From the IMG/VR virus record IMGVR_UViG_3300046772_000037, positions 1 to 50,421 of that record: a stretch of DNA of 50,421 nucleotides. One strand, given 5' to 3'. The notes below the pieces were generated by a model. That model did no database searches. It was not told the origin of the DNA and worked only from the letters and a program-made list of their open reading frames with translations. Position 1 is the stretch's first letter, and each line of letters starts with the position of its first letter. Position numbers and translations under genes: made by a program. Shown piece after piece: positions 15,682 to 37,859 of the stretch. Origin of the DNA: a virus (taxonomy: Duplodnaviria > Caudoviricetes).

Positions 15682-16257
15682 GTGTGGAAACCAGCGGACA
15701 GCCTAAATTGGCAATCAGAAGCACTATGTGCTAAACCAGCAAATCGTGAAACAATAGACTGGTTTTTCTCTTCCGAGTTTGAACAAAAATATGCGGCAAA
15801 GAACCTTTGCTTTCAATGCCCTGTCCGTAAAACTTGCCTACAGTGGGCCTTAGAACATCGTCAAATATGGGGTGTATGGGGCGGTAGAGATGAAGTAGAT
15901 ATTCGCAGAGCGCTATCCGTTTCATATTTAGGAGAAGAGACACGCAGACGTCGCTATCCAAATTGTCCTTACTGCACAGCAAGACCTAACAAACTAGAAA
16001 CAGCAATAGTTCAACTTGATAGTTCTGGTCGTTGGAATACAGCAAAAGTTGTTACATGTTCAGAGTGCGGTTTTGCTTGGAAGAGTAGAACAAGTGCTAA
16101 TGCTGTTGAAGCATATAAAGTTGACCGCGCTGAGCGCATGGAGCGTCAACGTAGAGACAGAGAAAAGCAGAAGAAGGCTAGAGAAAAAGAAAAAGCAAGA
16201 CTAAGAAAAAACGTTAAGCGTTCTTCCTTAGCCAAACCTGACTCCCTATCTCAATAA
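15682..16257 (+). CDS. whiB: WhiB-family regulator fused to a Zn ribbon and basic coiled tail
   Basis: WQSEALC...CFQCPVRKTC...GVWGG; then CPYC...CSEC; K/R/E-rich C-terminus. Confidence 0.88.
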   Translation: MWKPADSLNWQSEALCAKPANRETIDWFFSSEFEQKYAAKNLCFQCPVRKTCLQWALEHRQIWGVWGGRDEVDIRRALSVSYLGEETRRRRYPNCPYCTARPNKLETAIVQLDSSGRWNTAKVVTCSECGFAWKSRTSANAVEAYKVDRAERMERQRRDREKQKKAREKEKARLRKNVKRSSLAKPDSLSQ

Positions 16258-16798
16258 CAGATATATTTTTATTGTGGAATAGAAGAAAAGCGTCTATTGC
16301 TGGCTTAGGGTCTCTCATTATGTCCCCTGTCCCCTCACTCCATGTGTAATCATCAAAGGCTAAGACACCGCCAGGCTTTAGATAGTTGAAAGCATTAAGT
16401 CCGTCTTTCAAGACAGCCATAGCAGTATGGTCGCCATCAATATAGATAAAATCAAACATATTGTTATTTGTTGAAAAAAATTTGTCGCTAGTAGTTTTTA
16501 CTTTTACTAAACGTCCATCTTCCACAAGTTGTTCTGTTCTTGAATCATAAACTGTCTCAACATCATCCCAATCTAGTTTTTTATGGATAACTTCGTCAGA
16601 ACCTTCCCAGGTATCTACATCTGTTAGTGTTGATTTCCCCTCAGTCAATATGTTTTGAAAAAGCCACTCGGTGGCATCTCCTGTGTAGGCTCCAATTTGT
16701 AAAAAGTCTACTTGTCTATCTTTGAATTGACCTAGATACTTTGAAAAAGGAACTTGTGCGGTCATTGCAAACCAATTTGGGTAATTATTCTTTGTCAT
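16214..16798 (-). CDS. Class I SAM-dependent methyltransferase (Methyltransf_24-like, probable sugar O-methyltransferase)
   Basis: FLQIGAYTGDAT, VDTW, FDFIYIDGDH, LKPGGVLAFDDY. Confidence 0.88.
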   Translation of the reverse strand: MTKNNYPNWFAMTAQVPFSKYLGQFKDRQVDFLQIGAYTGDATEWLFQNILTEGKSTLTDVDTWEGSDEVIHKKLDWDDVETVYDSRTEQLVEDGRLVKVKTTSDKFFSTNNNMFDFIYIDGDHTAMAVLKDGLNAFNYLKPGGVLAFDDYTWSEGTGDIMRDPKPAIDAFLLFHNKNISVIEIGSQVWLRKNA

Positions 16799-33692: not shown

Positions 33693-36600
33693 CTACACCT
33701 GCCTCTCGTATTGGAACTGAACTAAAATTTCATCACTTTCACTAAAGAAGAATGGCAAATCATGTGTTGCTGAAAATCCTTCATCAAAATCAGCAATTTG
33801 ATTGTGAACCAGCATCTCTAATTTTCCATTGTCATTGTTATTGAAAATAACAGTTCCAATAAATATTTTGTTTGCAGAAGCATCTCTAAATGTAACTTGA
33901 CCAATAGGGTCAAAGTTTTTCACTGGAGTTGCTGCTGGAAGTGGGAGGCTAAGTCTATAAGTTCCATCACCTCTAGAGGTAGTTGAACCAGCAATGAGTT
34001 TAATATTTCCAAATACTAGAGAACCTAGTTGAATATATCTTCCAACTAATGAACCGTTTCCTACAGAAGCACCACCGCCAGAAGCAGTCCAGTTAGGTGT
34101 AAAAGTAGTCCAAGTCCCTGTATTGAATGTTCCAGTAGCACCTGTCGCACCAGTTGGTCCAAGTGGTCCTGTAGGGCCAGTTACATTGCTTGGTGCTCCA
34201 GTAGGGCCTGTGGCTCCAGTCGGTCCTGTCTGTCCCTCAGGGCCAGTTGGTCCTTGAACTGTTGATGGCGCACCTTGTTGTCCAGTAGGTCCAGTCGCAC
34301 CTGTTGGCCCAAGCGCTCCCCTTTCTCCAGAAAGAGATAGGACCCAGGCGTTCATTGAAATTTGTCCTTCTGGGTTGTAGACAGTATCAATATTGATAGT
34401 TATGTCTAGTCCAGAAACATTTGTAATCACACCCTCAATCCATGAGAATGGAAGTGCTTCAGTAGTTCTTGTAAGGCGTGTTCTAGAACCAAGAACAAAA
34501 GATTTTGTAGTAGGAGTTGCTGTAAATGTTTTTGTTCCAGTATCAAGAGTTAGGACTGTATTGCTAAATACTCCATCAAAACCAATTCCGAGTCCAGTTG
34601 CTCCAGTTGCACCGGTTGCTCCTGTTGGTCCGTTATTTCCTTGTGCACCAGTAGGTCCAGTTGCTCCAGTAAGGCCAACTCCAGTTGCTCCAGTTGGTCC
34701 CTGCAATGTTCCTACATTTTGCCAATAGTTTCCATCCCACACATATAGGTCGCCATCAATTAGATATGCCTGACCAATTTGTCCAGTAGGTTGAGCAGCA
34801 TTGAGTGCTGCTTCGTTTGGATAAGAACCAAGAATCGCAAGACCTTGTCCTTGAGGTCCTGTGGGACCAGTTGGTCCTATAGCACCTGTAAGACCAGTAT
34901 TTCCTTGAACACCTGTAGGTCCAGTTGGTCCAAGTGGTCCTGTAGGACCTTGAACTGTTGATTGTGGTCCAGTTGCGCCAGTAGGACCTGCTGGTCCTGT
35001 AGGACCAGTTGCTCCATTTAGACCAGAAGAAATTTCTGGAACACCAACTTCTGCCCAGAAACTATCGTAGTAGATATAAAGTGAACCATCAGTTGTGTTA
35101 TACCAAGCGTCTCCTTCTACTGGAGAACCTGGAGGAGTTGATGATGTTGTTGCAAACTTTCCTGCTGGACCTGTTGCACCAGAACCACCTGAAGAACCTG
35201 TTGGACCTGTTGGACCTGTAGCACCTACTGGTGCTGCTCCTACTTCAATCCAATATCCGTCATAGTAAACATAAACTTTTCCTGTCTCGGCATTAAACCA
35301 AGCATCACCAATCTCAACGGTTCCTGTTGGACCACTGCTTCCTGCAACAACAAAGTTTCCTTCTGCACCAGTAGCACCAGTAGGTCCAGTTGGTCCTTCA
35401 ATATAACCAACGTTGTCCCATTGGCTATTGACTGCATCCCATACATATAAGTTTCCGTCAACAATGTATGCATCGCCAGCACTACCAGTCGGATGAGCAG
35501 CAATAAAAGTTGGGTAATCTGGATAAGAACTGATGATGTTGAGACCAACACCTTGAGCACCAGTCGCACCAGTAGGTCCTACTGCACCAGTTGGACCGAC
35601 ACTACCAGTAGCACCTGTAGGTCCTACACTTCCTGTCGCACCAGTTGGACCGACACTACCTGTTGGTCCTACCGCACCTGTAGGTCCAGGAACTGTTGAT
35701 GCTTCACCTTGAGCACCAGTCGCTCCAGTTGCACCAGTAGGTCCTTGAATACCTTGAGAACCTGTTGCACCTGTTGCTCCAGTTGGACCGACACTACCTG
35801 TTGGTCCTTGGATACCTTGAGAACCTGTTGGACCAACTTCACCAGTTGCACCAGTTGGACCAACAGAACCTGTTGGTCCTTGTGCACCAGTCGCACCTGT
35901 AGCACCAGTGGCACCAGTTGCTCCAGTAGGTCCCTGAATTGTTCCTACGTTGTTCCATTCAGAATTTACTGAATCCCAAACATACAAAGTACCTGAAACT
36001 AAATAACCATCACCAGCATTAGCAGTTGGGTGTGCAGCAACAAGAGATGCATAATCTGGATAAGACCCAAGGATTGTTACACCTGTTCCTTGAGCACCTG
36101 TTGCACCTGTCGCACCAGTAGCACCAGTTAATCCAGTCGCACCAGTAGGGCCAGTATCTCCAGTCGCACCAGTAGGGCCTGTCGCACCAGTTAATCCTGT
36201 AGGTCCTGTATCACCTGTAGCACCAGTTGGACCAATATCTCCAGTAGCACCTGTTGGTCCTGGAACTGTAGAAGCAGCACCTGTTGCACCTGTCGCACCA
36301 GTAGGTCCTGTATTACCAGTTAAACCCGTAGCACCTGTAGCACCAGTTGCTCCAGTTAATCCTGTAGCACCTTGCGCACCTGTCGCACCAGTAGGACCTA
36401 CTTCACCTTGCACACCTGTCGCACCAGTAGCACCAGTAGGTCCCGTATCGCCAACTAAACCTGTAGCACCAGTCGGTCCTGTGTTGCCTTCTAAAGCAAG
36501 TAGATATGGACTCCAAGATTCATTACTTGTTCCAGATGTTGGTGGATACCCTGGGTTATTTGGATTACCAGAGCGAATATATTGAGAACCATCTATATAG

Positions 36601-37859
36601 GTAACAATTGCACCTATGTTGTAACTAAGTCCATTGTTATATAGACCTTGGTAGTTATCAAGCGCACCGGCACCAGTAGCACCAGTAGCACCAGTAGCAC
36701 CGGTGGCACCTGTCGCACCAATAGCACCTGTCGGTCCAACATTTCCTTGAACACCTTGCGCACCAGTTGCACCTTGCGCACCTGTCGCACCAGTAGGACC
36801 TACTTCACCTTGCGCACCAGTTGGACCAGTAGCACCTGTTATACCCTGAATACCTTGTGCACCTGTTGCACCTGTAGGACCAACAGCACCAGTTGCGCCA
36901 GTCGCGCCAGTCGCGCCAGTTGCACCGACAGCACCTGTAGGTCCTTGAATGTTTCCTACATTGTCCCATTCAGAATTTACTGCGTCCCAAACATACAAAT
37001 TGCCATTGATTAAATATCCATCGCCAGCATTTCCTGATACAGGTAAATTTGCTGGAGATGCAAGAGAGCCAATAATTGTTACAGAAGTTCCCGCTGCTCC
37101 TGTAGCACCTGTAGCACCAGTTAAACCTTGAACACCTGTTGCTCCAGTTGGACCTTGAATACCTTGCGCACCAGTGGCTCCTGTTGGACCTACTTCACCT
37201 TGAATACCTTGCGCACCGGTTGCACCTGTAGGGCCTTGCGCACCAGTAGCACCGACATTTCCTTGAATACCTTGAGAACCAGATGGACCAGTAACACCTT
37301 GCGGTCCAGTAATACCTTGAGCACCTGTAGCACCAGTTGCACCTGTTAGACCAGTTGGTCCCTGAATACCAGTCGCACCAGTTGGTCCTGTTGGACCACC
37401 AGAAGGTCCTGTTGGTCCTTGAATACCTGTAGGACCCATAGCACCTGTAGGACCAGTTGAACCTTGTGGACCGACTGGACCTCTAGGAACATTTACAGCA
37501 GCCTGAGATGAGACACTTTGACTTACTGTGTCAATTTTTGTTATATCTACAGAACTGCCATCACCTACTGGCAAATAAAAATCAAAATCATAGGCTTTAG
37601 CACCATATATGCGAATTCTTGCGGTGTAGTGCCAACCTATTGGAGATAAATCTCTATTATCAGTTGTAGGAAGGTCTACTTGAAAATAACCAGTATTGTC
37701 TAAAGTGATTTGAATAGGACCAGACAAGACAATTTCGTCGTTGTCATCCTCAACTTTACTGGATGCAGAAAATGTGATTGTTCCAGACGCGGGCTGGCCG
37801 TTCACTTTCTTGAACTGGCCAACTATCCGCCGTGTAGTCACGTCGCCCGAAAAACTCAT
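33693..37859 (-). CDS. Very long collagen-like fibre protein (1388 aa)
   Basis: N-terminal Ig-like anchor; long GPT/GAT/GAQ tracts interrupted by globular modules; C-terminal WTTFTPNW...GRYIQLG head. Confidence 0.88.

Follow-up and report, generated by a model that had tools for sequence, protein, structure and literature searches.

A putative glycosyltransferase for the threonine-rich collagen-like fibres of an actinophage-like virus

The glycans of the Bacillus exosporium protein BclA contain O-methylated sugars. In Bacillus, BclA is a Thr-rich collagen carrying O-glycans (PMC8968730), and in C. difficile, [12 protein letters not shown] peptides receive beta-O-GlcNAc on Thr, and also on Ser, from the glycosyltransferase (GT) SgtA (PMC7157674). 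Among viruses, Che8 and its relatives carry O-linked modifications on the C-termini of capsid and tail-tube proteins (Freeman et al. 2023, as cited in PMC12619734 and PMC13445384), and the Mimivirus enzyme L230 glucosylates viral collagen (PMC9614988). In this work we analyse virus record IMGVR_UViG_3300046772_000037, whose entire 50,421 bases are referred to as the window, and a GT encoded in it that is of the GT2-TPR type (TPR, tetratricopeptide repeat) and shares its strand with five collagen-like genes. Given the gene anatomy, homology, fold model and co-occurrence described below, this enzyme probably O-glycosylates Thr residues of the phage's own collagen fibres in the cytoplasm.

The coordinates of all features are presented in Table 1. 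As stated in a preliminary description of the window, five collagen-like genes are found on the GT strand, each with a Pfam Collagen match. Triplets were counted in runs of at least four Gly-X-Y, which yielded 406 triplets for the five genes. GPT (108) and GAT (91) together account for 49% of these, so the earlier statement that the triplets are mostly of these two kinds applies to about half of them. The Y position is Thr in 58%, Gln in 15% and Pro in 1.5% of the triplets; the claimed Thr preference stands overall, yet it drops to 39% in the smallest gene (62, 58, 52, 56 and 39% per gene). In comparison with the 8.9% reported for viruses, 20.2% for E. coli prophage collagens and 48.3% for Gram-positive bacteria (PMC3368898 Table 4), the window's 58% is far above the viral-collagen baseline and near the Gram-positive value. 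Charged residues make up 6-10% of the collagen proteins, none of which is predicted to have a membrane or signal-like segment. Given that their non-collagen ends match tail-fibre and minor-tail families, the collagens are regarded as putative virion fibres, which is annotation and not proof. Family searches returned no BclA-type end domains or BclA family matches in them.

The GT gene and that of an S-adenosylmethionine (SAM)-dependent methyltransferase overlap by 14 bases, which agrees with the preliminary description (PF00535/TPR and PF13578, respectively). The D84-x-D86 motif of the GT is intact, and D84, D86, H144, H165 and R192 are invariant in 24 aligned rows, SgtA included. No membrane segment was predicted in either enzyme, and the GT is predicted to be soluble. 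The sgtA gene was found in C. difficile by the primer printed in PMC7157674 (locus L166); the next gene downstream is a collagen in which Thr occupies 76% of the Y positions. The window GT matches SgtA over its full length (357 versus 358 amino acids), with 25% identity over 350 amino acids and an E-value of 2e-27. SgtA is also its best match in that C. difficile genome, the sole other match (7e-5) being to a 742-codon frame and confined to the N-terminus. The SgtA test-peptide octamer occurs 20 times in four of the five window collagens (14, 1, 2, 3 and 0 per gene; [23 protein letters not shown]).

The GT model presents a predicted local distance difference test (pLDDT) score of 95 and a helical C-terminus. 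In a fold search, the top six matches are SunS/ThuS (E 1e-15 to 1e-18), the next one is at 3e-8, and carbohydrate-acceptor GT2s (WrtF, TarS/TarP, RmlT) present E-values seven or more orders of magnitude weaker than SunS/ThuS. The best sequence/profile match of the GT domain is GmaR. SunS/ThuS and GmaR have peptide or protein acceptors, and the modelled fold of the window GT appears to be of this peptide/protein-glycosyltransferase type. Against TIGR04195 the GT scores 28.6 bits, below the cut-off of 350. The label "Beta-1,4-glycosyltransferase" (phrog_13126) was set aside as inherited annotation.

By inference from SgtA, we expect the window GT to work in the same manner: the soluble enzyme would take a nucleotide sugar from the host and O-glycosylate fibre Thr in the cytoplasm, the acceptor being the Thr of Gly-X-Thr, and perhaps of other Thr-rich cassette proteins too, with one sugar per site. 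The sugar-coated fibres would then be carried on the particle. The purpose is the least certain step. A first guess is that the sugar stabilises and hydrates the triple helix, given that charged residues are few in the helix and Pro is nearly absent from its Y position; a second is that it masks the fibres from proteases.

Co-occurrence was first considered among 24 contigs picked by their polymerase (the longer ones of 80). The GT is present in 21 of them, a collagen in 20 and the methyltransferase in 16; for the five that are at least 90% complete, the counts are five, five and four. The three relatives without the GT also have no collagen, but these are 30-55% complete and hence uninformative. 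Contigs picked independently of the family were obtained from DNA-motif scans for Thr-collagens and Lys/Asp-collagens, which yielded at least 122 loci each, with 71% and 15% Thr at Y, respectively. Distinct contigs of at least 25 kb were taken from the first 80 listed per motif (35, of which 33 were used, versus 43), and the GT was detected by a profile of 24 GTs. It is present in 19 of the 33 Thr-collagen contigs versus two of the 43 Lys/Asp-collagen contigs, with habitat and kinship uncontrolled, and in six of seven versus none of 17 when only complete records are considered. The corresponding Fisher p values are 3e-7 and 5e-5, although these wrongly treat contigs as independent and ignore habitat. 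The window's own GT subfamily is found in 16 of 33 versus none of 43. In the reverse test, the motif GPTGxTG is present in 27 of 32 longer GT contigs and in all five complete ones, the five contigs without it being 21-44% complete. The preliminary description had named an absence of correlation between the GT and Gly-X-Thr collagens as one possible refutation, and a correlation was found.

The GT family is wide, with 6730 relatives among 7999 candidates scored. Within the DNA fetched, 46 of the 80 closest GT loci have a collagen on the GT strand, as do 22 of 27 loci in two small-phage lineages. Lineages were sorted by shared-protein comparison, given that a terminase search had matched only ten of 33 contigs. 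Three phages (G341, G332 and G355) have only the GT in common with the window and a fourth (G326) one protein more; in these phages, the GT is located among head-tail connector, tube, adaptor or capsid genes. At another locus (L027), the same six-gene fibre cassette and GT are followed by sheath and tube genes. The GT lies in virion-assembly modules of otherwise unrelated phages. In Bacillota, GT homologs are present in 77 of 301 genomes. When the 29 top loci other than that of C. difficile were read, 16 had a collagen within 1.5 kb (three of these Thr-poor or short), and widening ten of the 13 negatives added three more. On a Peribacillus plasmid, a collagen with 96% Thr lies directly upstream of a 40% GT homolog. 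A further Bacillota cluster (L455, genome G284) combines three GT2-TPR homologs with nucleotide-sugar genes, a Thr collagen being located about 10 kb off.

Such co-occurrence could be a by-product of a shared habitat and a shared hypervariable island, with a GT unrelated to the collagens. The contig sets are unmatched for habitat or lineage, and 14 of the 33 Thr-collagen contigs have no GT, as this explanation would expect. We nevertheless find it hardly credible, given the direct GT-collagen adjacency in phages with no other common gene, on a soil Bacillota plasmid and on Bacillota chromosomes, and given that the characterised homolog SgtA has exactly this substrate (PMC7157674).

Another explanation, which we consider unlikely, keeps the GT as a protein O-glycosyltransferase but makes its main acceptor another virion protein, such as the capsid, the tail tube or the Thr/Ser-rich 1109- and 1088-residue cassette proteins, the collagens being fellow travellers. 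The immediate upstream neighbours of the GT are indeed non-collagen Thr-rich genes, mycobacteriophage Che8 encodes a GT that glycosylates its capsid (cited in PMC13445384 and PMC12619734), SgtA accepts Ser peptides too (PMC7157674), and in the phages PaBG and Y3 the GT homologs are near head and sheath genes while the collagens are Thr-poorer. However, the partner that recurs in small unrelated phages and Bacillota is a collagen, often as the next gene (L521, L525, L526, L084 and L061/L062), whereas only a minority of the 80 loci have the 1109- and 1088-residue genes close to the GT. The 128-residue protein next to the GT is near it in 27 of these loci, and directly upstream in two phage lineages. 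It is possible that the 1109-residue protein is a second acceptor, besides the fibres.

Table 1. Features of the window around the glycosyltransferase and the collagen-like genes (aa, amino acids; ORF, open reading frame).
Feature	Position	Strand	Basis
Terminator-like hairpin at end of methyltransferase gene	16199..16233	-	pattern scan only
SAM-dependent methyltransferase, cation-type O-methyltransferase fold (predicted), 194 aa	16214..16798	-	PF13578 E 2e-16
GT2-TPR glycosyltransferase, 357 aa	16785..17858	-	PF00535 E 3e-11 and weak TPR matches
TANNNT box 6 bases before GT start codon, predicted leaderless promoter	17865..17870	-	motif as in PMC3898074
Intrinsic-terminator-like hairpin with U tail, between fibre block and GT	17887..17911	-	pattern scan; z -3.9
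128-aa tail-fibre-like protein	17929..18315	-	phrog_9017
102-aa conserved fibre-cassette protein, no family	18318..18626	-	family scan, locus comparison
1109-aa Gly-rich, Thr/Ser-rich fibre-cassette protein (12% Thr)	18651..21980	-	PF21722, phrog_863
Two small cassette proteins, 111 and 112 aa	22011..22684	-	ORFs, PHROG scan, locus comparison
1088-aa protein, family annotated virion structural protein (12% Thr)	22749..26015	-	phrog_5838 E 5e-239
Collagen-like protein, 23 triplets, 39% Thr at Y	26033..26569	-	Pfam Collagen, triplet count
210-aa Thr-rich protein, no family	26635..27267	-	family scan, composition
Collagen-like fibre, 79 triplets, C-terminal tail-fibre domain	27270..30155	-	phrog_4492 E 2e-53 on non-collagen C-terminus
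316-aa repeat protein; DSL-LC01 counterpart annotated photosystem II assembly factor-like	30323..31273	-	family scan
Collagen-like fibre, 48 triplets, C-terminal minor-tail domain	31243..32637	-	phrog_8780
Collagen-like protein, 33 triplets	32640..33689	-	Pfam Collagen, triplet count
Largest collagen-like fibre, 223 triplets in 15 runs, N-terminal tail-fibre-type domain	33693..37859	-	phrog_14726 E 2e-16; phage_tail_N-like lead

A single operon for fibres and enzymes is not predicted. As the preliminary description had overlooked, 8.2 kb separate the GT from the nearest collagen gene, and this interval contains six non-collagen genes and, just upstream of the GT, a terminator-like hairpin. Counterparts of this hairpin (17911-17887) present z values of -2.5 to -6.5 in eight relatives chosen for the same gene order, i.e., in nine of nine chosen loci. 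The TANNNT box before the GT has the spacing known from actinobacterial leaderless genes (PMC3898074). In the upstream regions of 61 distinct relatives, the box is found at exactly 6 bases in 21 and at 5-7 bases in 25, other offsets accounting for at most four each, except offset 11 (11 regions); a terminator is present in 16 regions, and both terminator and box in 15. Within the window, the box precedes three of 44 start positions tested (four of the 44 being alternative or misplaced starts) and none of the 13 fibre-block gene starts, and a sigma-70 scan yielded fewer promoters than shuffled sequences (18 versus 31). Given that terminator and box stand between the fibre block and the GT, the GT and methyltransferase are predicted to form a transcription unit separate from the fibres. 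The terminator would end the fibre transcript, and the two enzymes would be expressed from their own leaderless promoter, perhaps before the fibres or at a lower level.

This separation leaves some room for a GT that acts together with the methyltransferase on a protein or surface glycan of the host and thereby blocks superinfection. Its predicted promoter, located after a terminator, is of host type, a host-surface role has been proposed for freshwater phage GTs (PMC10202952, PMC7029224), and the window encodes a membrane-anchored, Thr-rich protein of 1303 amino acids. Yet the GT itself has no membrane anchor, the GT2s with carbohydrate acceptors rank far below SunS/ThuS in the fold search, and a host-surface role leaves unexplained why the GT is tied to Thr-collagens in modules of siphovirus, podovirus and myovirus type as well as on Bacillota chromosomes. 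We therefore regard it as improbable. The 1303-residue protein (44966-48877, minus strand) has an N-terminal hydrophobic segment, a Thr/Ala-rich coil, a PA14 domain and a long Pro-Glu repeat; it resembles host-surface proteins encoded by phages and might serve the GT as an alternative acceptor.

The methyltransferase model has a pLDDT of 90.8. Its fold matches include TrmR at rank 1, MeT1 at rank 2 and SpnH at rank 30, as well as catechol and CCoA O-methyltransferases, and tRNA, catechol and sugar enzymes score alike in this search. The model has a class I cation-dependent O-methyltransferase fold. The label "DNA methyltransferase" (phrog_2675) was set aside as inherited annotation. The gene directly follows the GT in 18 of the 80 loci, and PF13578 is matched in eight of 19 GT-positive and none of 14 GT-negative Thr-collagen contigs, and in three of 43 controls (p 0.01). 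A PF13578 search found no match in G003, DSL-LC01 or PaBG, and the enzyme is therefore optional. Fusions of the GT are also found: one complete relative (G010; L176:5412-7064) joins it to a class I methyltransferase from a different family, whereas L021/L022 (L021:10001-11734) join it to a second GT2 domain. Together with the PF13578 distribution, these fusions suggest a variable second step on the sugar. The pairing of GT and methyltransferase that had been described stands for the window, where the two adjoin, and for the fusion in G010, but not for the many GT-bearing phages in which the methyltransferase is missing. We only tentatively propose that the O-methyltransferase would then cap the sugar in some lineages. 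Alternatively, it may methylate the protein directly; methylation of a mycobacteriophage tail protein needs a host enzyme (PMC13445384).

As to glycan size, a search limited to the GT families PF00535 and PF13692 in five relatives that are 86-100% complete found the GT2-TPR as the sole PF00535 match and no PF13692 match, and family scans of the window returned no nucleotide-sugar genes. Given both results, the glycan is more likely to be one sugar supplied by the host than a chain of the BclA type. With their single GT2 and no PF13692 match, these relatives give no indication of a BclA-like oligosaccharide coat.

A role in DNA modification was also considered, in which the GT would protect phage DNA from restriction by glycosylating its modified bases, and either the DNA or the added sugar would be the substrate of the methyltransferase. 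Such a role is proposed by default for freshwater actinophage GTs (PMC10202952), and the PHROG labels near the methyltransferase read "DNA methyltransferase". It is nonetheless very improbable here, given the peptide-glycosyltransferase fold of the GT, the cation-dependent O-methyltransferase fold of its neighbour and the location of the GT in structural modules. The thymidylate-synthase family (PF00303) was matched in none of three complete family members searched and in one of two small phages. A Tet_JBP search matched none of five genomes, and its control matched nowhere.

Several results weigh against glycosylation of the collagen fibres by the GT. In the tree relied on (careful method, 29 rows, midpoint root; an earlier quick tree had long branches), the window GT falls within a clade of phages and Bacillota (100/100), apart from the SgtA clade (100/100). 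Long GT2-TPRs form a third clade (97/96), and the order among the three is poorly supported (84/79). Given that it lies outside the SgtA clade, the GT is on this tree a homolog and not an ortholog of SgtA, in a separate subfamily; of the expected relation, full-length homology was confirmed and clade membership was not. The contrast between contig sets is uncontrolled for habitat or kinship. The 14 Thr-collagen contigs without the GT include the complete G331, whose Thr collagen has just 19 triplets, and, among those 75-88% complete, G356 (88%), G351, G328 and G349; in two of five GT-less contigs checked, a PF13692 GT is found in place of the GT2-TPR. In Bacillota, ten of the 29 loci have no collagen in the DNA read. 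The jumbo phages PaBG and Y3 have divergent GT homologs (33% and 26%), but their collagens lie at a distance of 17-45 kb and have Thr at just 17% and 25% of Y positions. Co-transcription of the GT with the fibres is not predicted, and recombinant collagen from an E. coli prophage needs no sugar to be stable (PMC3368898). Finally, all support is computational.

The two cultured jumbo phages each have four homologous collagen-like genes (L170 and L171; PaBG 196-204 kb, Y3 66-75 kb), whose helices begin with a charged stretch and end rich in GPTG, the divergent GT being located elsewhere. The cultured phage Lu11 has a divergent homolog as well. For six relatives (G003, G004, G005, G006, G010 and G024), the polymerases are 75-80% identical, but the GT is only 37% identical, and the collagens of G003 and G010 add frequent GNT triplets. 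In these relatives, the GT may have been replaced and the acceptor motif may have changed to match. At L053:3916-6937 and L064:9027-11050, two or three GT paralogs stand in tandem between Thr collagens.

The window is probably a fragment of a larger phage genome, given that polymerase-picked relatives reach 130-134 kb when complete. It encodes DNA polymerase A, a helicase, a primase, a terminase, a resolvase, minor tail genes and two WhiB genes. As WhiB genes in a phage point to an actinobacterial host (PMC10202952), such a host is indicated, and the virus appears to be actinophage-like. The WhiB genes are at 14667-14951 and 15682-16257 on the plus strand; the second converges with the methyltransferase gene, with which it shares 44 bases, and a TANNNT box is located 7 bases ahead of its own start. 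A serine resolvase/invertase is encoded at 48936-49604 (minus strand), and no other lysogeny genes were seen in the window. The closest annotated record is DSL-LC01, a lake metagenome assembly with a GT of 58.5% identity, collagens upstream and a converging WhiB gene; collagen is unmentioned in the accessible part of its paper (PMC10611076). Where the window has the fibre cassette, DSL-LC01 has a gene annotated as tryptophan halogenase that overlaps the start of the GT (L081:18433-20004). Close relatives of the window are present in RNA libraries labelled freshwater, and RNA-library contigs of three freshwater studies include long pieces closely related to 17932-26563. Among the pieces listed, two start at 17932 and 17938, near the terminator, but they include unaligned letters, so that neither transcription nor an end is demonstrated.

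More broadly, and with somewhat more doubt than confidence, we suggest that several unrelated aquatic tailed-phage lineages may swap a portable module of Thr-collagen and GT2-TPR, by which hundreds of virion-fibre Thr residues would be glycosylated, the sugar replacing hydroxyproline and being O-methylated or extended in some lineages, and that the enzyme subfamily may have moved between phages and spore-forming Bacillota. In the literature searched, whose coverage leaves out most subscription journals, a connection between phage collagens and a GT of the SgtA kind was found in no paper. Freshwater-phage papers propose DNA or host-surface roles for such enzymes (PMC10202952, PMC10611076, PMC7029224), usually without a test, whereas here a widespread family is given a specific acceptor. 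If this is true, sugar-coated collagen fibres would be common on lake phages, virion glycosylation would extend from capsids to fibres with a link to spore-coat chemistry, and a new subfamily of small collagen O-glycosyltransferases would be available for stabilised recombinant collagen.

Each part of the proposed system is already known, and the preliminary description appears to have been largely right about the GT while overstating the BclA-like coat and the methylation. In comparison with the C. difficile SgtA/BclA3 system (PMC7157674), the window GT has the same length, the same GT-A plus TPR layout and, by prediction, the same solubility, and the GPT/GAT repeats of its collagens match the SgtA test peptides. 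Unlike that system, it belongs to a phage and not to a spore, with five collagens that have tail-fibre-type ends and no BclA3 C-terminus; the GT lies 8 kb downstream behind a terminator, whereas sgtA is directly upstream of its collagen, and an optional methyltransferase, a separate clade and the 25% identity further set it apart. SunS/ThuS and Listeria GmaR provide the best fold and GT-domain profile matches, yet no bacteriocin or flagellin partner was seen, and TIGR04195 is below its cut-off. As in Che8, an actinophage would encode a GT for its own particle that acts by O-linkage, but the predicted target is collagen Thr and not the C-termini of capsid and tail-tube proteins. Mimivirus L230 differs in that hydroxylysine is its acceptor and its domain is of the [16 protein letters not shown] kind, and it is an enzyme of another type from a eukaryotic virus. 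With BclA, the window collagens share a Thr-rich Gly-X-Y region (58% Thr at Y, versus 76% in BclA3); BclA oligosaccharides, however, are made by several enzymes and in a spore, while the window is a virus record with no spore or exosporium context, whose near-complete relatives have a single GT when PF00535 and PF13692 are considered.

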